Positions 3,103 to 60,089 of a stretch of DNA of 64,000 bases are shown here, piece after piece. A program made the translations under genes and the position numbers. How positions within the stretch are numbered: the stretch's first letter is position 1; every line of letters begins with the position of its first letter. The stretch is from a virus. Taxonomy: Duplodnaviria; Caudoviricetes. The notes beneath the pieces were generated by a model, which worked only from the letters and a program-made list of their open reading frames with translations, had not been told where the DNA came from and did no database searches. The stretch lies in the IMG/VR virus record IMGVR_UViG_3300046170_000323; one strand, given 5' to 3'.

Positions 3103-3125
3103 TTTATTCTCCTGTTTGTGTGTGT

Positions 3126-3150
3126 AAAAATGGGGGGAATAAATCCCCCC
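3126..3150 (-). terminator. Intrinsic terminator after hsp20
   Basis: GGGGGGA/TCCCCCC stem followed by a T-run on the minus strand. Confidence 0.65.
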
Positions 3151-3161
3151 TGAGTCATTAT

Positions 3162-3611
3162 TTATTCTGTGAGAAGTTCTTCCTTCCCAGCAACTGAACC
3201 AATAGAGATCTTTCGAGGTTTCTTTTCCTCTGGGATCACATTTTCAAGTTCTACGTAAAGGATACCGTTTTGGTATTCAGCACCACGTACTACAATTGTA
3301 TCCGACAAAGTAAACTTTCTACGGAACTGTCGTGCACTGATTCCTCTGTGTAGATATTGCGCTTCCGACTTTTCGTCTTTCTTACCCTCTACAGTAAGTA
3401 CACCGTCCTTGACTTCAACATCAAGTTCATCTTGGTTGAATCCGGCAAGTGCCAGTTCAATGACGTAATTATCGTCATCTACTTTGCGTATATTGTAGGG
3501 TGGGTAGTTTGGTTGACTTGATCCTGTTTGATGCATACGATCTAGTACACGGTCAAACCCAATAAAAAATGGATCATTAAGTAAGTCGGCAGTCATTCTG
3601 CGAGTATTCAT
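3162..3611 (-). CDS. Small heat-shock protein (Hsp20/IbpA family)
   Basis: NYPPYNIRK, LALAGF, YLHRGISARQFRRKF, NGIL motifs. Confidence 0.95.
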   Translation of the reverse strand: MNTRRMTADLLNDPFFIGFDRVLDRMHQTGSSQPNYPPYNIRKVDDDNYVIELALAGFNQDELDVEVKDGVLTVEGKKDEKSEAQYLHRGISARQFRRKFTLSDTIVVRGAEYQNGILYVELENVIPEEKKPRKISIGSVAGKEELLTE

Positions 3612-13686: not shown

Positions 13687-13939
13687 GAGTCAAGTTGCTC
13701 CATTTTTTAAGTTTCTCACGTTTTGCGTCTGCACATGCATCCACATTATTCCAACTAATCAAATCCCATTCGTGTAGTAAGTTCAACATACACATAAGAT
13801 CACCGACTTCTGACTCCAACTTCTGATTGTTGTCATATCCAAATCGGATCATCTTTGCAGCTTCGATTGCAACCTCTGAACATTCTTCCATAAGAATAAC
13901 CATCAGTTCATCACGCTCTGAAATTTTATCATTACCCAT
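13679..13939 (-). CDS. MazG-like nucleotide pyrophosphohydrolase
   Basis: LMEECSEV...LESEVGDL. Confidence 0.75.
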   Translation of the reverse strand: MGNDKISERDELMVILMEECSEVAIEAAKMIRFGYDNNQKLESEVGDLMCMLNLLHEWDLISWNNVDACADAKREKLKKWSNLTLD

Positions 13940-13943
13940 TATA

Positions 13944-14300
13944 TCACTCCCCTAAGAATTTGTCAAGCCTTGGTGGTTCCCACCCTTCTGGTTTTAGAAC
14001 TTTTCCATCTTCACGTTTGCGAACCTTACCAGTATCTGGATCAATCTTCGCAAAATTTGTTTTCATAACTTCATCCCATGCACCTTGTCCATCCATACCA
14101 GCTGCACGAATTGCACCAATAGTTACAACAAGAATGTCAATCAGTGCATCTAGTTGTTCAACCCTATCGTTTAACATCACTGCGTCTTTAAGTTCACCGA
14201 ATTCTTCTTCGATTAGATCAAGATACAGTGCATAGTTTTCTGGTGACGGTTCTTGGTCACACGCATTACCAAACTTATTGATATCATCAAACAGTGACAT
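13944..14300 (-). CDS. PRA-PH/MazG-like NTP pyrophosphohydrolase
   Basis: LIEEEFGEL, LDALIDIL, EVMKTNFAK, REDGKVLKPEGW. Confidence 0.8.
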   Translation of the reverse strand: MSLFDDINKFGNACDQEPSPENYALYLDLIEEEFGELKDAVMLNDRVEQLDALIDILVVTIGAIRAAGMDGQGAWDEVMKTNFAKIDPDTGKVRKREDGKVLKPEGWEPPRLDKFLGE

Positions 14301-25681: not shown

Positions 25682-25724
25682 CCTCTCATTGTCTACAATT
25701 CATAATGTTCCCATTATAACAGAT

Positions 25725-26213
25725 TTACGTGTACGTGTCAACCGTAAAGTTTGTATAACGGAATGCCACAGTCGCTTCTACGTAGTTCGTATCAGTCGCA
25801 GTGATGTCCAGTGGTACTGAGGAGATGGAGATGGGGAAACAATCTTTGAAATTAAATTTGATGTTTGGGTTCTTGTGATTGTTGTTGAGTACAATCGTTA
25901 TATCTGATTGCGTTCCTCTCTCACTCTCTTTGAGATTCTTGTATTGAGTTTGATTTTCTGGAGCGCCCATACCTTCCATCCAGTTCAGAATCTCCAAATA
26001 GTTTTTCATATCCTCATCGACGATAAATGACATGTCGAGATCTGAATAGACCAATTGGCTTGGAGTATCATATAAGATCCCAAGTGGTGAGTTCAACTGT
26101 TGTGGGTTCCCCGACACATCTGGTATTGTCACTTTCTGTGTAAAGAATTCCACATTCGGAAGTCTATCGATAGAAACAAAGAATGACGTTGGAGATAAAT
26201 AGTTAGTGATCAT
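25725..26213 (-). CDS. gp3: Tail completion/tube terminator (gp3-like)
   Basis: NYLSPTSF, NVEFFTQKVTIP, FIVDEDMKNYLEI..W, FKDCFP; late promoter upstream. Confidence 0.85.
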   Translation of the reverse strand: MITNYLSPTSFFVSIDRLPNVEFFTQKVTIPDVSGNPQQLNSPLGILYDTPSQLVYSDLDMSFIVDEDMKNYLEILNWMEGMGAPENQTQYKNLKESERGTQSDITIVLNNNHKNPNIKFNFKDCFPISISSVPLDITATDTNYVEATVAFRYTNFTVDTYT

Positions 26214-35523: not shown

Positions 35524-35685
35524 ATGGAATGGATTATGGCCTTTGGATTCATCTTCTTTTTGATGATCCTCTGTTTTTCCTTACTGCGTTTCGCAATAGG
35601 TTTTTTATCATGGTCTTGGCGTAATTCATTCCTAATACTTGCCAGCATTATAATCTTAATACTCCTCTTAGCTCAGCTGGATTAG
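35524..35685 (+). CDS. Small two-helix membrane protein (53 aa) overlapping tRNA-Arg
   Basis: MEWIMAFGFIFFLMILCFSLLRFAIGFLSWSWRNSFLILASIIILILLLAQLD*. Confidence 0.45.
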   Translation: MEWIMAFGFIFFLMILCFSLLRFAIGFLSWSWRNSFLILASIIILILLLAQLD

Positions 35686-35739
35686 AGCATCTGCCTTCTA
35701 AGCAGAGGGTCGTAGGTTCGAGTCCTACAGAGGAGGCCA
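35662..35739 (+). tRNA. tRNA-Arg(UCU)
   Basis: Acceptor CTCCTCT/AGAGGAG, anticodon arm TCTGC-CTTCTAA-GCAGA, TTCGA T-loop, encoded CCA. Confidence 0.96.
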
Positions 35740-35759
35740 ATATAAGGAAAAACAAACTC

Positions 35760-36635
35760 ATGAGTTTTGAATTCGACTTTACCAAGGAACACCTTGGGGA
35801 AATTATTTCTGCAGATGCAGATGATTGGTATGACGCACTTTGCGAACTTCTTCCAAAGTACGGTATTACAACTGAACGCAGAGTTGCACACTTCCTATCT
35901 CAGTGCGCACATGAATCTGCAGGTTTTAAGAGACTAGAAGAAAATTTAAACTACTCTGCAAAGGCTCTACGTGCCGTCTTTGGTAGATACTTCGGCGCAT
36001 CTCCAAAACGTGATGCAGACGAGTATCACAGACAACCAGAGATGATTGCAAATTATGTGTACATGGACGAGTTCCGTAAATACAAAATGGGCAATGTCAA
36101 CGAGGGTGACGGATGGTTATTCAGAGGCCGAGGCTTGAAACAGTTGACTGGCCGTGAGAACTATACACGCTTTGGTAAAACTGTAGATATGACTGCAGAA
36201 GAAGCGGCAGTGTACGTTGCAACACCAGCGGGTGCAATTGAAAGCGCATGTTGGTTCTGGGACGCAAATAATCTAAACGATATTGCCGATGGTGATGACG
36301 TTAAGAAAATGACGAAAAAAATTAATGGTGGATCTATTGGCTTGGATGATCGTAAGAAACGTTACATGCACGCTATGGAAGTTCTAGGAATGGACGCAGA
36401 AGATCTCGCTGCAGATGATGATGACATCGAAGATATCATTGACGATATTGGTGTACTACGTAAAGGTGCAAAAGGCGATGGAGTCAAACTGATGCAAGAA
36501 GCATTGGGTATTGGTGCAGACGGAGACTTTGGGCCAGGCACAGAACGTGCATTGAAAAAATGGCAGTCAGACAATGGATTGACTGCTGATGGTATCGCAG
36601 GGCCAGCAACCCTTGCAAAACTGTTTGACGACTAG
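35760..36635 (+). CDS. Endolysin: GH19 (chitinase-like) domain + peptidoglycan-binding domain
   Basis: FLSQCAHES, ENLNYS, FRGRGLKQLTG..NY, TKKING; C-terminal DGDFGPGT...Q..NGL.ADGIAG. Confidence 0.92.
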   Translation: MSFEFDFTKEHLGEIISADADDWYDALCELLPKYGITTERRVAHFLSQCAHESAGFKRLEENLNYSAKALRAVFGRYFGASPKRDADEYHRQPEMIANYVYMDEFRKYKMGNVNEGDGWLFRGRGLKQLTGRENYTRFGKTVDMTAEEAAVYVATPAGAIESACWFWDANNLNDIADGDDVKKMTKKINGGSIGLDDRKKRYMHAMEVLGMDAEDLAADDDDIEDIIDDIGVLRKGAKGDGVKLMQEALGIGADGDFGPGTERALKKWQSDNGLTADGIAGPATLAKLFDD

Positions 36636-36642
36636 TCGTCAA

Positions 36643-36690
36643 GAAGGGGCGACATCTCCTTTCTCTTACAACTTACAATGTCGCCCCTTC
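36643..36690. repeat. Perfect 13-bp inverted repeat (hairpin)
   Basis: GAAGGGGCGACAT ... ATGTCGCCCCTTC, 22-nt pyrimidine-rich loop. Confidence 0.85.
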
Positions 36691-36696
36691 ACTTTA

Positions 36697-36773
36697 CTCA
36701 GTGTAGGTCAGTCTGGTAGACCGCTACGTTTGGGACGTAGATGTCGTTGGTTCAAATCCAGCCACTGAGACCA
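36697..36773 (+). tRNA. tRNA-Pro(UGG)
   Basis: CTCAGTG/CACTGAG, anticodon arm CTACG-TTTGGGA-CGTAG, CCA. Confidence 0.95.
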
Positions 36774-36775
36774 AT

Positions 36776-36849
36776 AGGAGTGAAGTGTTATGGAAGCACG
36801 TTGGATTCCAAATCCAAAAGCTGGGGTTCGACTCCCTGCACTCCTGCCA
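36776..36849 (+). tRNA. tRNA-Trp(CCA)
   Basis: AGGAGTG/CACTCCT, TTGGA-TTCCAAA-TCCAA, CCA. Confidence 0.93.
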
Positions 36850-36868
36850 GATTTAATGAATAAATAGT

Positions 36869-37012
36869 ATGACAACAGATCACGAAATTACAATGTTTCT
36901 ACATTTCTGGGCAAGAAGGGGAATACCTCTCCCAGATCCAACCCACTACCCTAATTCTTTTATGTGGTATGTGAAGATGTATAGGTACTATCAAAATGAC
37001 AAAGTTAAGTGA
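36869..37012 (+). CDS. Small aromatic-rich peptide (47 aa)
   Basis: MTTDHEITMFLHFWARRGIPLPDPTHYPNSFMWYVKMYRYYQNDKVK*; follows an AATAAATA late-like box and overlaps the next gene. Confidence 0.55.
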   Translation: MTTDHEITMFLHFWARRGIPLPDPTHYPNSFMWYVKMYRYYQNDKVK

Positions 37013-37967
37013 CGAAGAACTCGCACATGTAAGAAAATATGGCCCACCATTGGAAGATCCAGTAATAGAGAATTACTTGGATAAGACAGGTCTCAGTAAT
37101 CCAGACGAAGAGACACGTGAGACAAAAGTAAAACATCTGCAGTATGGTCTTGACATGGATCAAGAAGTAATACGCAGGGCACAAAAGTGCCAGAGAAATT
37201 GGAATTACACCAGAGACATCAATTCATCAGTACGAGATCATCTCCTATGGATTGCACAAAATGCACCTTCGAAACAACACGAAGGTTTTTATGACGTTTA
37301 CTGGTCAGAAGATAGGGACACAATTCAAGAGATGTCCCGATACACTTGGGGATGTACTCACAGTAGAACCCCACCATCAACTTGGAGAAACGCACAAGCA
37401 AATGCAAACATGTATATTTTGTTTGTTGCGAAAGAACCGTCAGGACAAGAAAACTGTCATGTGGATGGATCCTTAAAAGAAAACAATCGCCCAGAACGTT
37501 GGGAAAATGCATATGTCTCTATTGGTATTGCCATGGGGATGATCTTGTTTACTGCGAACCAATTAGGTCTACAGACTGGGTGTAATAAAAGTCACGGTGA
37601 TTTTGATGGTGATGATTATTTTGAAAACAAACTTGGTATCCTTGAGGATGTCAGAGCTGGTAAGAAAAGAATTGCGTATGGGATGGGTATCGGTTATGGT
37701 CAAGATGGTAGACCAAGATACGAAACAGATGAAACAGAGATTGCGCTTGGGGCGGGAAATGGTGACACACTCACTGAATATCCAGACATGGGAACTCATC
37801 CAACAACAGGCAAAGAGTTCAGACGTGTTAAGGTTGTAGATACCACAGAAATGGGTGGACAGGAAGTAACTGATCACTACGGTAACGTGCACACCGTTCC
37901 ACACGACTCTAACATAAAGATTAACACGATGCGCCCACGTGACATCAAGATTATTGAAATAGAATGA
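36996..37967 (+). CDS. Nitroreductase-fold protein
   Basis: SQ/AQKCQRNWNY, AQNAPSKQ, SIGIAMG...ANQLGLQTG, MGIGY. Confidence 0.75.
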   Translation: MTKLSDEELAHVRKYGPPLEDPVIENYLDKTGLSNPDEETRETKVKHLQYGLDMDQEVIRRAQKCQRNWNYTRDINSSVRDHLLWIAQNAPSKQHEGFYDVYWSEDRDTIQEMSRYTWGCTHSRTPPSTWRNAQANANMYILFVAKEPSGQENCHVDGSLKENNRPERWENAYVSIGIAMGMILFTANQLGLQTGCNKSHGDFDGDDYFENKLGILEDVRAGKKRIAYGMGIGYGQDGRPRYETDETEIALGAGNGDTLTEYPDMGTHPTTGKEFRRVKVVDTTEMGGQEVTDHYGNVHTVPHDSNIKINTMRPRDIKIIEIE

Positions 37968-38575
37968 CAGATATAAAAAGCATTGTAGACAGAAGTCAGA
38001 TATGTACTAGGAACTGGGATCACTCAAAGACGATTCCAGAAGAACATATTGATATCTTTTTACACGCATTGCAGAACTGTCCAAGTAAACAGAACTTCGC
38101 CTTCTATAAAATTCATCTGATTACAGATAAAGAGATGCAGGCGCAGATCTTAGAAGAGACAAGGATCTTCACATTACCAAATGGTGTGACTGTTACTAAT
38201 AGTCAAAACATGGCAAATATTCTTATTGTGTTTGAGAAACCAAACTACAGTGATACCATGTTGAAGAGGAATGAAAAGTATACTTGGTTCAACACCCAAC
38301 CAGAGTGGGAACTCGACAGAGATTCGTGGATGAACATTGGTGTTGCGGCTGGATACTTGAATTACATTGCACATTCCCTTGGTTATGAAACAGGGTATTG
38401 TGCAGGTCTGCATCAAGAGAATGTTAAAAATATAATTGGTTGTGAAAACAATATTGAACTCATGATGGGAATAGGTTTTAGGGATATGGAACTGGATCAA
38501 AGAGATCATCACTTTGGTGAAGGCAGGTTCCCCCACTACAGAAAAGAACCTATCATCGTAGAACGACATGAGTGA
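37964..38575 (+). CDS. Nitroreductase-fold protein (paralogue)
   Basis: SQICTRNWD, NCPSKQN, IGVAAGYL..IAHSLGYETG, MGIGF. Confidence 0.8.
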   Translation: MTDIKSIVDRSQICTRNWDHSKTIPEEHIDIFLHALQNCPSKQNFAFYKIHLITDKEMQAQILEETRIFTLPNGVTVTNSQNMANILIVFEKPNYSDTMLKRNEKYTWFNTQPEWELDRDSWMNIGVAAGYLNYIAHSLGYETGYCAGLHQENVKNIIGCENNIELMMGIGFRDMELDQRDHHFGEGRFPHYRKEPIIVERHE

Positions 38576-39294
38576 TTATGTTCACGTTAGGGAAGGACAC
38601 GATGTCTATCCGTTCTTCAAAGAACTTTTCCCTGACTATCAACCCACAGAAAAGGTTTTAGACTTTGGCGGTAATAGGGGAAATTTACTTTATCACTCTA
38701 GTGGTGGAATTACAGACCATAATTATACATCTATTGACGTAAGTACTACGGCGCTCGAATTGGGCAAACAGGACTTTCCAAACGCAACATTTATTCATAA
38801 CAATAAATGGAACTGGATGTACAATCCAAAAGGTGTTGAGTTACCTCACTACTGGCCTCTACAGAAGAAGTTTCCAGAGGTTGATTATAAACAGGACTAC
38901 ATCTTTGCATACAGTGTATTCACTCATACTGATCTAACTGAGTTTGTTGAGACTTTAGAGTGGTTAAATTGGTTTGATTTCAAAAAACTGGCAGTGAGTG
39001 TCTTAGACATCAACAGGGATGAGATCCACAAATTCTTTTACGATAAAAGGGATAGAGGATTACGGGCATTGTGTTGACCTATCAGAGATGAAAGGTAAAA
39101 ACATTGCATACCTCTACAACAACGAGACAATCTTATACGACAAGATTAGTGCATACAAATTAGATGTTCAACACTTCTTGTCACTATATAACATAGACTT
39201 TTTGGTGGAGACGTTGGGTGAGTATGGATTCAATGTTACAATCGAAAAGCCAGGCAAAGGAATCATTCCTTTTGTCTGCATGGAAAAAAAATAA
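38568..39294 (+). CDS. Class I SAM-dependent methyltransferase; +1 frameshift near 39047
   Basis: VLDFGGNRGN, SIDVS, YIFAYSVFTH. Confidence 0.8.
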
Positions 39295-39313
39295 AAAAAG
39301 TTTAATTTAACGC

Positions 39314-39342
39314 TTGCCTTTTGAGGCAACAAGTGTTATATT
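39314..39342 (+). promoter_or_regulatory. Early sigma70-like promoter driving the ncRNA/tRNA unit
   Basis: TTGCCT-17bp-TATATT-AACAAGGTAAG, same family as 34108 and 34885. Confidence 0.75.
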
Positions 39343-39348
39343 AACAAG

Positions 39349-39590
39349 GTAAGACACAGTGAGTGGTTGTCGACTCCCCCATGCTGAAGTATGGAAAACG
39401 ACTTTAAGAGATCTGTTGTCTGTGGTAGCCTGTGCCACGTTAGAAAATAAGACGGGCCGATATTAAAGCAGTACCAAGAGATAGTGAGTTGCTGAACAGA
39501 AGTTGACTGTAAAAGATTGCAGAAGGTCAACTACTCAACTTGAGGGTCACTCTAATTTACTGCACGTTTGATCGTGGTGTTGATCAAACA
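39349..39590 (+). ncRNA. Candidate structured ncRNA A
   Basis: No sense ORF; nested stems AGTGA/TCACT, GTCG/CGAC, CCAT/ATGG, GTGG/CCAC, AGTTGAC/GTCAACT, GTTTGATC/GATCAAAC. Confidence 0.5.
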
Positions 39591-39593
39591 CAT

Positions 39594-39667
39594 GCGGATG
39601 TCGTATAGTGGCATTACCTCAGATTTCCAATCTGATGATGAGGGTTCGATTCCTTCCGTCCGCTCCA
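39594..39667 (+). tRNA. tRNA-Gly(UCC)
   Basis: GCGGATG/CGTCCGC, TCAGA-TTTCCAA-TCTGA, CCA. Confidence 0.95.
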
Positions 39668-42156: not shown

Positions 42157-42685
42157 ATGAGAGCAGAAATGAAAAAATTAGTTATGGCTGCAGTAGCGGC
42201 ATCAATGATGTTATCTGGTGCAGTACCTGCATCTGAGTCTTCTACCGATGTAGATTGGGAAGAGATGAAATGTCTCGCATTGAACGTATACTATGAGACA
42301 CGTTCAGATAGTCTCGCTGGTCAATACGCAGTGAGTGATGTTGTGTTGAATCGTGTGGCGAGTGATCGTTATCCAAACACTGTCTGTGAAGTTGTACACC
42401 AAGGAAAACAAAAACCCTCTTGGAAAGATCCAAGTAAAATGGTTATGGTTCGCAACATGTGTCAGTTCTCTTGGTACTGTGACGGTAAGGCAGACAAACC
42501 AACAGACGAACAATCTTGGTCAAGCGCCCCAAATGGTCGCCTTTTCTATTATGATATATGGGAAGTATAGAGGGTTGACCGAAGGTGCAACACATTATCA
42601 TGCGAAGTATGTCACACCTTCATGGTCTAAAGATTTATATCAGATAGGTCGTATTGGTCAACATATCTTCTATAGGTATTACTGA
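42157..42685 (+). CDS. Cell-wall hydrolase (SleB/Hydrolase_2); +1 frameshift near 42525
   Basis: CLALNVYYETR, V..VVLNRV, YPNTVCEVV, CQFSWYCDG, GATHYHA. Confidence 0.92.
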
Positions 42686-43012
42686 TTACTTTTTACGGAG
42701 AGCGTCTGCTCCAAAGAATGCAGCAACCAATGCAGAGATAGCAACAAAATATGTTGGAGCAATATCACCAACAATACCTGCGGCTGTCTCTAGTCCAAAG
42801 TACGCAGTAAGTACGATGGCGAATGGATACAACAGCATTCCGAAAAGGGCGAACCAAGTCATATTACGCATTGCATCACGCTGTGCGTCTTGGTCTTCTA
42901 GCGCTTTTCTTTTAAATTCTAGGTACATGGCTTTTTCTTCTTCGTCTACCGAACCATCACCGTTTACGTCTGCAGGGTGGTAACCTGCTTTCTTCATATC
43001 TTCTTCAGACAT
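42686..43012 (-). CDS. Holin-like membrane protein with an N-terminal EF-hand-like loop
   Basis: DVNGDGSVDEEE followed by two hydrophobic helices. Confidence 0.55.
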   Translation of the reverse strand: MSEEDMKKAGYHPADVNGDGSVDEEEKAMYLEFKRKALEDQDAQRDAMRNMTWFALFGMLLYPFAIVLTAYFGLETAAGIVGDIAPTYFVAISALVAAFFGADALRKK

Positions 43013-43062
43013 AGGAAACTCCTTGGATAATTAAAGATGCATGCCGAAGAATTCACTTACAT

Positions 43063-43074
43063 TATTTATAAATA
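43063..43074. promoter_or_regulatory. Overlapping bidirectional T4 late promoters
   Basis: TATTTATAAATA contains TATAAATA on both strands. Confidence 0.7.
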
Positions 43075-43087
43075 GTCTTATTGGGTA

Positions 43088-43116
43088 TTGACAAGTATAA
43101 AAAAATGTCGTATAAT
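43088..43116 (+). promoter_or_regulatory. sigma70-like promoter
   Basis: TTGACA-17bp-TATAAT upstream of the tmRNA unit. Confidence 0.8.
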
Positions 43117-43147
43117 AATGATGTAAAAACAAAATTGGAAATGAAAT

Positions 43148-43321
43148 ATGTGGTTGTTAACACTAATTGCACTCGAACCTGTGGATGGTCATGTTTTGAA
43201 TCCACATAAGATTTTAGGTTTCAAAGATGAAGAATCTTGTAAGGCTGTTTCCTCTATGGATGCAGTCTATGTAGACGGTGTTTACTGGAAGGTAGACGCA
43301 CCCTGTTTAGATGTTTCATAG
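43148..43321 (+). CDS. Small hypothetical protein (57 aa)
   Basis: MWLLTLIALEPVDG...ESC...PCLDVS*. Confidence 0.45.
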   Translation: MWLLTLIALEPVDGHVLNPHKILGFKDEESCKAVSSMDAVYVDGVYWKVDAPCLDVS

Positions 43322-43333
43322 AAGGAAGATTAG

Positions 43334-43522
43334 ATGCAGAGAAATAGTAGACTACCAAGAAAACCTATGAACTCTGGTGATGAGTGGGATGTGTTAACTG
43401 ACGCACGTGAGTTCTACTGTTATACACAAAGATCTAAAGTTTGCAAAAAGATCAAGAAAGCGTATAACAAAAAAGAACGCAAATGGTTAAACAAAGAATT
43501 CTTAGTCGTGGACATGGACTAA
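43334..43522 (+). CDS. Basic hypothetical protein
   Basis: 62-aa ORF; GDEWDVLT. Confidence 0.55.
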   Translation: MQRNSRLPRKPMNSGDEWDVLTDAREFYCYTQRSKVCKKIKKAYNKKERKWLNKEFLVVDMD

Positions 43523-43795
43523 GTAAAGATGTAATTGTTGAAGCAAAGCGAATACGAACTGGACTGGGGGGCAGTACCCCACAGCTCCACCACAAACACA
43601 TTTACTGAGTGTGTTTTTGATGGGGGCTGAACTAGGATCGACAGGCGGGCTAGTTGAGTGGAGATTACCGTGGTGACCTACGTTATTCGGTCAAAAACTA
43701 TAAGTGCAAATGATAATTTCGCACCATCTGAGTTACGCCTAGCAGCGTAGCCGCAGGGGGTATGGGTTCCACCTAGCAACAGAAAGGGCCCGTTT
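43523..43795 (+). ncRNA. ssrA: Circularly permuted two-piece tmRNA (alphaproteobacterial type); outer ends approximate
   Basis: Acceptor piece ends TGGGG-GGCAGTA-CCCCA CAGCTCC-A-CCA (43592); hairpin spacer 43593-43622; coding piece starts GGGGCTG (43623, G3-U70 pair); tag 43706-43750 = ANDNFAPSELRLAA*. Confidence 0.93.
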
Positions 43796-43856
43796 TACGT
43801 TTGGCATAAATATTTTGAGACCCATAATAGATAACAAACTCTAAAGGAAATATAAA

Positions 43857-44042
43857 ATGGCTTTCAAAGTTGGAACAGTTACTGTTATCGACAACTCCAA
43901 GGAACTCGAAAATATTGAGGCCACGGATGCGGTAACAGTAGAAACGATTGAAGACGCAATAAGAGAAGCGGCTAATAAAATCATCATTTATGATTCGGCG
44001 GGTAATGTGTTGAAAACAGTATTTGGCCCACCAGAAGCATAA
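43857..44042 (+). CDS. Small putative virion/tail-fibre-associated protein
   Basis: MAFKVGTVTVID...; CATAAATA late-like box at ~43806. Confidence 0.55.
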   Translation: MAFKVGTVTVIDNSKELENIEATDAVTVETIEDAIREAANKIIIYDSAGNVLKTVFGPPEA

Positions 44043-44057
44043 GAGAGGGCAAAGACT

Positions 44058-45014
44058 ATGGCTGTGAGAAGACCTCTTTACTGGACAGGTGATGGCCTCA
44101 GGCCCATGTCCGATGCGATGATAGATGATATCGTTGATCGTGCTGTTGCGTTGTATAATAACAACCCTTCAGTCACGTTAGACGTGGTAAGTGATAATGG
44201 TAATTTACGAACGATGAATGACACACGTTTCGAAGCGGGTGATGCAACAAGAAGATCTGGTAGATATTCGACTGAAGCTGAAACTCCAGATATCGAAGAA
44301 GTTGTAATTTATAACGATAGAATTGATCAAACGGTTGCAAGTGGCACATCGTATCCTACAAACACTGACAACATTGCGTTTCCCACTTACCAAACAGGGT
44401 CTGATGTGCGAACAATGACACGTGGTGATTTTGTAGACACATTCATTAAACCTGCGATTGATAAGTTATTGACATCAACTGTTGCAGGGTATACAGTCAT
44501 TTCTGATGCTGCGACAGCACCCAACACCGTAGAAGCTGTTGACAATACTCCAATCTTTATAAACACGATTGCAGATGTTAGCTAAGTTCACGGCGGTTGG
44601 TATTCCAGAAACTAAAGATCAACCAGAAACTGTGGACTCATACAAACTTTATCGGTACAAGAATACAACACCAGCAGCGTTATCACAAAAACCTCTGAAA
44701 CTTACAAGTAGAAACTGATCCACATATCCAACAGATGTCAGATACAGAATTGAATGATCTTTTAGAAGACACTATCAGACATACAGCCTGCAAATGATAC
44801 TACAGCTGCACACAGAATTAGGTATAACATAAATGTGGTTGGTGGGACTAATCGTGGTTCACCAATGCTTGATACAAGACTTAATGGAACGTCTGCAGCA
44901 GGATATACTCAGAAACCTTTGGGGATCTATGACAACTATTACGAAACTCAGGAGTTTCCGAACGGTATTGAAACTACCATAAATACATATAACTTAACTA
45001 TTACAAAATCTTAG
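44058..45014 (+). CDS. Putative virion structural protein A (frameshifted after ~44580)
   Basis: MAVRRPLYW, DTRFEAG, ...YETQEFPNG...TINTYNLTITKS*; Thr/Asp/Ala-rich. Confidence 0.6.
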
Positions 45015-59317: not shown

Positions 59318-60089
59318 ATCTTTTCATAACATAAAATTACTGAGGGGAGTCCAATATCTTAGTTGGGCTTCCGTTCCGTTTGTCTTGGTCTATCCTTCGA
59401 CATTCAGTCTGCCTGCATTTCTTGTTGGTGTGTTCTTCATTACTATGTTGGGTTCGTCTGCAGGGTTGCACCGATACTTTGGACACAAATCGTTTAAGAC
59501 TGGAAAGTTGAGACACTGGTTTCTTGGTCTTGTAACGACATTGTCCACACAGGGATCTATTCCATTCTGGGTACAATACCATCGTGCACACCACGTCTTT
59601 ACTGACACAGAGGACGATCCGATATCACCCACCTTCGTGGGGTTCTGGAAATCCTTCTTCTCTATTCAAGACATCAACAGTTACAAAGGCATCAGTCCTA
59701 AAAACATTGCAAGGGAGATGAGAGACCCTGCAGTGAAATTTTTTCATGAGTGGTACTGGATTATTATCTTGACATACGTTTTGATTCTTGGTATAATAGA
59801 GCCAACGCTTTTGATAAATGCTTATTTGCTGCCTGTGTTCATGATCAGGTTCACCTTTGGGCTTCAGAATACATTTGGGCATGGTATACCTGTTTTCTTT
59901 GGATACCGTAACCACGAGACGAAAGATAAGAGTTTGAACAGCATCTTTGTAAATATCATCACGTTTGCACTGGGGGAGACACTCCATAACAATCACCATG
60001 CGAACCCTGCGAAATACAACTATCAGGAAAGATGGTATGAACTGGACTTGACAGGATTTGTAATTAAAAGGTTTTTCTCAATTGTATAA
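59292..60089 (+). CDS. Membrane fatty-acid desaturase (paralogue)
   Basis: HRYFGH, HRAHH, GETLHNNHH. Confidence 0.88.
   Translation: MRTILAQVKSFHNIKLLRGVQYLSWASVPFVLVYPSTFSLPAFLVGVFFITMLGSSAGLHRYFGHKSFKTGKLRHWFLGLVTTLSTQGSIPFWVQYHRAHHVFTDTEDDPISPTFVGFWKSFFSIQDINSYKGISPKNIAREMRDPAVKFFHEWYWIIILTYVLILGIIEPTLLINAYLLPVFMIRFTFGLQNTFGHGIPVFFGYRNHETKDKSLNSIFVNIITFALGETLHNNHHANPAKYNYQERWYELDLTGFVIKRFFSIV

Follow-up and report, generated by a model that had tools for sequence, protein, structure and literature searches.

A circularly permuted, alphaproteobacterial-type two-piece tmRNA gene in the genome of a T4-like phage

A tmRNA made of two RNA pieces was reportedly described by Keiler, Shapiro and Williams in 2000 for Caulobacter crescentus and other Alphaproteobacteria. 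Processing and activity have been demonstrated for the Caulobacter molecule, whereas those of the gene discussed here are predicted from its sequence. Phages carry genes of this type as well. The phage Melnitz, which infects OM43, a gammaproteobacterium, has an alpha-type ssrA; two-piece tmRNA genes occur in 17 of 47 Melnitz-like contigs, and a census of 18,146 phage genomes with ARAGORN as the detector gave 53 distinct two-piece tmRNAs, 50 of which were marine or aquatic (Buchholz et al. 2022, PMC9004378). In that study the genes are proposed to maintain the machinery that the phage has hijacked or to recycle proteins of the host. Phage tmRNAs in one piece have also been described, as has a case in which only the tRNA-like domain (TLD) is present; a molecule reduced in this way is noted to be a strong inhibitor of tmRNA, possibly because it titrates SmpB (Hudson et al. 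2014, PMC4131195). The one-piece tmRNAs of the mycobacteriophage Bxz1 group and of Bacillus phage G resemble the gene described here in being phage-borne rescue RNAs that rely on host partners, but the genes of the Bxz1 group, phage G and mycobacteriophage DS6A are non-permuted and belong to phages of Gram-positive hosts.

The window analysed here, a stretch of 64,000 nucleotides from an IMG/VR virus record, contains a two-piece tmRNA gene on its plus strand. With Rfam 15 cmscan the tmRNA_permuted model (RF04321) matched at 43530-43750 with 115.2 bits (E 9e-22) and the alpha_tmRNA model (RF01849) at 43461-43794 with 103.2 bits (E 4.5e-27), far above the gathering thresholds of 47 and 50 bits, respectively. 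Among the overlapping models of the clan the alpha model scores best at this locus. An earlier note on this DNA had proposed a phage-encoded, circularly permuted tmRNA of the alphaproteobacterial type at 43523-43795. This identification is confirmed by the two Rfam models and by the features read in the sequence: the interval encloses the gene (43530 to about 43791), and every element that had been named, i.e. the GGCAGUA T loop, an encoded CCA, a hairpin spacer, G3.U70 and the tag ANDNFAPSELRLAA, is present. The order of acceptor piece, spacer and coding piece is the same as in the two-piece tmRNA of C. crescentus and other Alphaproteobacteria, with the CCA at 43590-92 followed by the spacer at 43593-622 and by G1 at 43623.

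The two-piece tmRNAs of the Melnitz-like and pelagimyophage contigs (PMC9004378) are of the same kind as the window gene. Like the ssrA of Melnitz (MZ577097.1, 45984-46436), it is an alpha-type two-piece tmRNA in a T4-like marine myophage, it is located downstream of an early-type promoter, and it encodes an ANDN...LAA tag (in Melnitz ANDNYVPVDYALAA). There are also differences. The spacer is 30 nt long in the window and 142 nt in Melnitz, and the genes downstream of the window tmRNA have no similarity to Melnitz gp33 or gp59. The glutamine riboswitch of Melnitz is not present in the window, as the region 42900-44400 gave no Rfam match to it even at E <= 1.

The anatomy of the gene can be followed position by position. 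The acceptor piece (43530..43592, +) consists of the 5' strands of P2, the T arm, the acceptor 3' strand, A73 and CCA. In the T arm (43565-81) the stem strands UGGGG (43565-69) and CCCCA (43577-81) enclose the loop GGCAGUA (43570-76), which is of the GGCRGUA type found in alphaproteobacterial tmRNA (RF01849); the Rfam alpha consensus reads GGCgGUA. The acceptor 3' strand CAGCUCC (43582-88) is followed by the discriminator A73 (43589) and the CCA. Excision is expected for the 30-nt spacer (43593..43622, +), in which AAACACA (43594-600) and UGUGUUU (43610-16) form a 7-bp hairpin. The coding piece (43623..43791, +) starts with the acceptor 5' strand GGGGCUG (43623-29), which pairs with CAGCUCC to give a 7-bp acceptor stem between the two pieces. 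In this stem G3 (43625) faces U70 (43586), the alanine identity pair that is also found in the alphaproteobacterial tmRNAs. Next come the D-loop-like segment AACUAGGAUCGA (43630-41), which corresponds to the AGGAUCGAC D-loop analogue of RF01849, and the 3' strands of P2 (CAG at 43642-44 and AUUAC at 43664-68). A probable pseudoknot 1 (PK1, 43669..43693, +) can be drawn shortly before the resume codon, with stem S1 formed by CGUG (43669-72) and UACG (43679-82) and stem S2 formed by UGACC (43674-78) and GGUCA (43689-93).

The tag frame (43706..43750, +) starts at the resume codon GCA 43706 and continues for 14 codons to GCG (43747), after which the stop codon UAG follows at 43748-50. The resulting tag ANDNFAPSELRLAA has alanine as its first residue, an ANDN start and an LAA end; the bacterial alpha tags in our sample likewise begin with ANDN. 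Beyond the frame the 3' H-type pseudoknot (43758..43791, +) is composed of S1 (GGG 43758-60 with CCU 43772-74) and S2 (GGGUUC 43764-69 with GGGCCC 43786-91). Its loop contains the conserved motif GCAACAGAAA, in agreement with the GCAACAGAA loop of the alphaproteobacterial 3' pseudoknot, while about 40 positions of the RF01849 model past the stop codon are missing in the window gene. A kissing interaction between CAACAG in the 3' loop and UUGUUG in the leader was considered as well and rejected, because in two relatives (L010 and L055) the leader has changed without a change in the loop. The last hairpin is followed by the U-rich tail GUUUUACGUUU (43792..43802, +), which is conserved in L010 and is a possible transcript end, a candidate that the terminator scan did not call. 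A promoter-like site is located after the last hairpin at 43801-28.

The earlier note had suggested ARAGORN and Rfam for checking the identification. Both Rfam models agree, but ARAGORN called no tmRNA in the window, even with thresholds lowered down to -ps80. Chimeras with the detected relative L055 showed that the stretch responsible is nt 20-37 of the coding piece, which contains P2b. Here the window RNA has just two pairs and an A.G mismatch, which explains why the program fails on this gene and makes P2 weaker than in most relatives. Since two Rfam models and the covariation described below agree, we treat the ARAGORN result as a false negative. The single-sequence MFE fold of the tmRNA was no better than that of shuffled sequences (z = -1.31) and is uninformative.

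The genome that carries the tmRNA is that of an uncultured T4-like marine myophage. The window encodes a T4-type DNA polymerase of the gp43 family (E 3e-298), an SbcC-like gp46 and a gp41-like helicase, and the polymerase is just about 45% identical to that of the nearest isolates, which are cyanomyophages. The nearest record, G001, is an IMG/VR virus of 118 kb with a completeness rating of 63%, and it has the same tmRNA at 116.5 bits. The tmRNA gene lies inside the phage genome with phage genes on either side, and L010 is syntenic on both sides. One of the nearby genes encodes a SleB-like cell-wall hydrolase (42157-42570, +; Pfam Hydrolase_2, E 4e-13); among the matches listed, such a gene is found near the tmRNA in 26 viral loci. 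Searches of the six frames of the window with an HMM built from five bacterial SmpB proteins gave no SmpB (best E 0.36), and none was found in the incomplete G001 genome. The RNA therefore presumably uses host SmpB and other host factors, and its function would depend on a compatible host SmpB. Its location in a lytic-type phage for which neither the window nor the incomplete G001 yielded an SmpB gene distinguishes the window tmRNA from the two-piece tmRNA of Alphaproteobacteria.

A perfect sigma-70 consensus promoter (TTGACA-17-TATAAT) at 43088..43116 (+) likely drives a unit consisting of orf57, orf62 and the tmRNA. Matches to the sigma-70 consensus with at most one mismatch are about 20-fold enriched in the window (20 observed vs 0.88 expected). 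These sites follow the gene strand, minus to about 26 kb and plus from about 34 kb, with examples at 13938-13966 (-), 25713-25741 (-) and 59769-59797 (+). The homologous promoter of L010 directly precedes the tmRNA, with 6 nt between its end and the acceptor piece, and in five further relatives a promoter close to the consensus lies 8-13 nt upstream of the tmRNA. The 5' end of the acceptor piece is placed at about 43530 because promoters abut that position in these six relatives. In the window and G001 the promoter and the tmRNA are separated by an insert of about 410 bp that carries orf57 and orf62 and is absent in L010 (window 43117-43529 vs about 3105-3270 on the L010 plus strand); a short GTAAA repeat occurs at both of its edges. 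The first of the two small genes, orf57 (43148..43321, +), is conserved only in G001 (100%) and absent from L010. The second, orf62 (43334..43522, +), encodes a small basic helical protein and has its stop codon 7 nt before the acceptor piece. With the insert placing the promoter 413 nt away, the two small ORFs and the tmRNA are probably transcribed together, the tmRNA forming the 3' part of the mRNA-tmRNA transcript, and an extra 5' cut would be needed to release the acceptor piece, unlike in L010. No Pfam or PHROG match was obtained for orf57, for orf62, or for a 61-aa ORF and a 175-aa ORF near the tmRNA. In a related viral contig a manA RNA motif (RF01745, 64.7 bits; L014:8176-8382, -) was found directly downstream of the tmRNA gene.

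We consider it most probable that the gene encodes a functional alpha-type two-piece tmRNA that takes part in ordinary trans-translation, relies on the host for SmpB, AlaRS, EF-Tu and the processing enzymes, and thereby keeps ribosomes free during infection. We infer that it is transcribed, processed, charged and active in tagging, to the benefit of the phage. Host sigma-70 RNA polymerase would probably transcribe the unit early from 43088-43116, with the two small ORFs leading the transcript. The precursor would then be cut into an acceptor piece of about 63 nt (43530-43592), with its encoded CCA end, and a coding piece of about 169 nt (43623 to about 43791), while the 30-nt hairpin spacer would be discarded. 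Pairing in the acceptor stem and in the long helix P2 would hold the two RNAs together. Host AlaRS may recognize G3.U70 and A73 and charge the 3' end with alanine, after which host SmpB and EF-Tu would deliver the molecule to ribosomes stalled on broken mRNAs. Translation is predicted to resume at GCA 43706 with addition of ANDNFAPSELRLAA, so that the ribosome would be released and the product marked for ClpXP-type proteolysis. The likely benefit is that ribosomes remain available while the T4-like infection degrades host DNA and mRNA.

The same trans-translation could also, as the earlier note proposed, be maintained for a counter-defence reason, in which case the phage copy would mainly replace host tmRNA or tRNAs cleaved by anti-phage nucleases. 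The four tRNA genes that the same phage carries at 35662-39667 (+), 4-8 kb upstream of the tmRNA (Arg-TCT, Pro-TGG, Trp-CCA and Gly-TCC), could be taken for a set of spare parts for translation. However, none of the genes beside the tmRNA was identified as a defence or anti-defence gene, no result links tmRNA cleavage to this phage group, and maintenance of the machinery or recycling of host proteins is what Buchholz et al. propose instead (PMC9004378). The sequence itself argues neither way, and we regard a backup against host defence as very unlikely to be the main reason for carrying the gene.

A degenerate pattern describing the alpha-type T arm and acceptor end was searched in IMG/VR and matched at least 120 contigs (L002-L121). 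The permuted order, defined by a complementary 5' strand with G1 and G3.U70 at most 200 nt downstream, was found among the matches listed in 106 of the 113 loci with enough flank, while a complementary 5' strand occurred in the upstream control in none of the 113. Together with the 53 published cases (PMC9004378), these numbers do not support the earlier view that permuted phage tmRNAs are few. A tag of the ssrA type, taken as one that starts with A or V and ends in AA or in an aliphatic residue followed by A, is encoded by 112 of the 116 complete viral genes among the matches listed, and most of these tags end in LAA.

Covariation was measured in the 45 viral sequences nearest to the window among the matches listed, in which the helices, P2a, P2b and distal P2 included, remain paired although both strands have changed. 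In this set the T arm is 100% paired, with four pair types at two positions, and P2a is also 100% paired. Pairing amounts to 92% in P2b and to 82% in distal P2, the latter compared to 32-46% in slid controls. In the 3' pseudoknot S1 is 99% paired and S2 86%, with 21 additional pair types in S2, and the acceptor-stem pairs 5:68 and 6:67 covary. The signal is lower in PK1, where S1 is 70% paired (at most 52% in slid controls) and S2 45%, the S2 columns being gappy and poorly aligned; compensatory variants of PK1 are visible by eye in three sequences of the printed alignment (L106, L006 and L072). In the S2 stem of the 3' pseudoknot of L010, a gene 86% identical to that of the window, all six pairs differ from the window while complementarity is kept.

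The comparison of the window with G001, which is 98% identical, adds a view at short distance. Differences are found at 5 of 30 spacer sites and at 4 of 232 mature sites (Fisher p = 0.0013), which corresponds to an about 10-fold higher rate of change in the spacer than in the mature RNA. The changes in the mature RNA preserve pairing: the acceptor pair 5:68 is C5-G68 in the window and A5-U68 in G001, a compensatory double change, and a second change converts a G-C pair of S2 to G.U. Differences concentrated in the spacer and pairing-preserving changes elsewhere are what one would predict for a spacer that is removed and two pieces that have to remain paired. Two near-identical phage genomes thus provide unusually clean evidence of a spacer that is thrown away while the rest is kept, and by this comparison the tmRNA gene is under selection that is purifying on the mature parts and not on the spacer.

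Not every relative has kept the complete gene. The record IMGVR_UViG_3300024264_000029 (L169, 1475-1875) shares only window positions 43308-43644 at 96% identity, which comprise orf62 and the tRNA-like domain. Its tmRNA breaks off after GGAUCGACAG and a nuclease-like ORF of the PD-(D/E)XK-like type comes next, so that a TLD-only remnant is left, the state described for mycobacteriophage DS6A (PMC4131195). Since everything past the tRNA-like domain is gone, at least one lineage can do without the tag half. That such truncation can happen, together with the weak P2b and the promoter displaced by the insert, might suggest that the window gene is a neutral or decaying copy, captured from a host, for example by a temperate phage integrating at ssrA, and no longer used. 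However, the gene is complete and not an attachment-site fragment, it belongs to a large all-viral group in which helices covary, and the compensatory change and spacer-specific divergence between genomes of 98% identity are difficult to reconcile with disuse, which we consider extremely improbable.

The state of L169 also bears on a different role, in which the phage RNA would compete for SmpB or swap the tag and so alter which proteases see the rescued proteins. A molecule reduced to the tRNA-like domain is the strong tmRNA inhibitor for which SmpB titration has been suggested (Hudson et al. 2014, PMC4131195). With respect to the tag, the middle and penultimate residues vary widely among viral tags, and the window tag ends in RLAA while ALAA is the commonest ending among the viral relatives in the matches listed. 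Yet the final three residues LAA are canonical, and the window retains a complete, conserved tag frame and 3' pseudoknot as well as the probable PK1, features more in keeping with an RNA that works in tagging than with a decoy. No sequence evidence sets this role, or the defence backup, apart from ordinary rescue. Interference or re-tagging as the purpose of the window gene is rated highly improbable, and a tmRNA that takes part in ordinary trans-translation remains the preferred interpretation.

Sequence comparison indicates where the gene belongs. In a BLAST search of 50,697 phage records only Melnitz (about 73% identity over 145 nt, annotated SsrA) and Sinorhizobium phage Phosso matched. 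In an even sample of 401 alphaproteobacterial species, identity over long stretches reaches only 66-73% at best, and therefore capture was not recent, which is a further argument against an unused host copy; five small-genome MAGs share only the T arm with the window tmRNA. In a tree of 109 viral and 29 bacterial tmRNA sequences a branch with SH-aLRT 81 separates all sampled bacterial tmRNAs from the window gene, which lies on the viral side within a well-supported all-viral group of 41 (SH-aLRT 95). Melnitz is located in the viral group adjoining that of the window. The separation of viral and bacterial genes in this tree is provisional because the bacterial sample of 29 is small. The phylogeny against host ssrA that had been suggested as a check thus returned, with these bacterial sequences, nearest relatives that are all viral, the bacterial tmRNAs lying across the branch. 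The earlier expectation that the gene pins the host class is weak: the gene type points to an alphaproteobacterial origin, but the host class is suggested and not pinned, because Melnitz with its alpha-type ssrA infects a gammaproteobacterium.

The discovery of yet another two-piece phage tmRNA is in itself of modest weight, because such genes are already published and common and the window gene is one more confirmed case. Its detection history has a wider implication. Among the matches listed, ARAGORN detected 71 of 116 complete viral alpha-type genes and missed 45 (39%), whereas all 16 of the ARAGORN-negative loci tested with Rfam scored above the gathering thresholds. Censuses of phage tmRNAs that are based on ARAGORN therefore undercount these genes, and this applies to the published one.

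The protein encoded by orf62 deserves separate consideration. Its AF2 model is helical and confident (pLDDT 85.5) and had no fold match in the PDB or AFDB clusters; in the Atlas only viral hypothetical clusters were found. The family comprises 831 protein clusters, all unannotated, of basic, helical proteins of about 55 aa. Thirteen distinct genomic contexts were found: four are inside tmRNA spacers (L100, L174, L193/194 and L195/196), one is directly upstream of a tmRNA (the window orf62), three are beside or within tRNA arrays, and five are away from RNA genes. In two of the three tRNA-linked lineages the gene lies 17-20 nt past a tRNA 3' end, and in the third it lies within the tRNA array. 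Members of the family are located at L100:8612-8785, L174:1501-1668, L193:1501-1686, L195:783-965, L172:1501-1662 and L188:1501-1680.

Small genes in tmRNA spacers are not restricted to this family. An orf62 homologue lies in the spacer of L193, whose closing stem, AAACACA/UGUGUUU, is also that of the 30-nt spacer of the window, which is empty. With a closing stem as in the window, the 149-nt spacer of L010 contains a different ORF of 47 codons, of which a homologue is present in the L036 spacer (140 nt). Among the matches listed, 25 of 42 viral tmRNA spacers of at least 90 nt contain an ORF, and families of spacer ORFs recur in different spacers, e.g. L010/L036, L110/L037/L028 and L099/L088. 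It could be that the tmRNA gene of marine T4-like phages is a docking platform for small protein genes, and that the orf62-family proteins do not merely borrow the promoters of these stable RNAs but act together with them, e.g. when precursors are processed or ribosomes rescued; we think this rather unlikely. The orf62 family is a concrete lead on phages packing small genes into stable-RNA transcription units.
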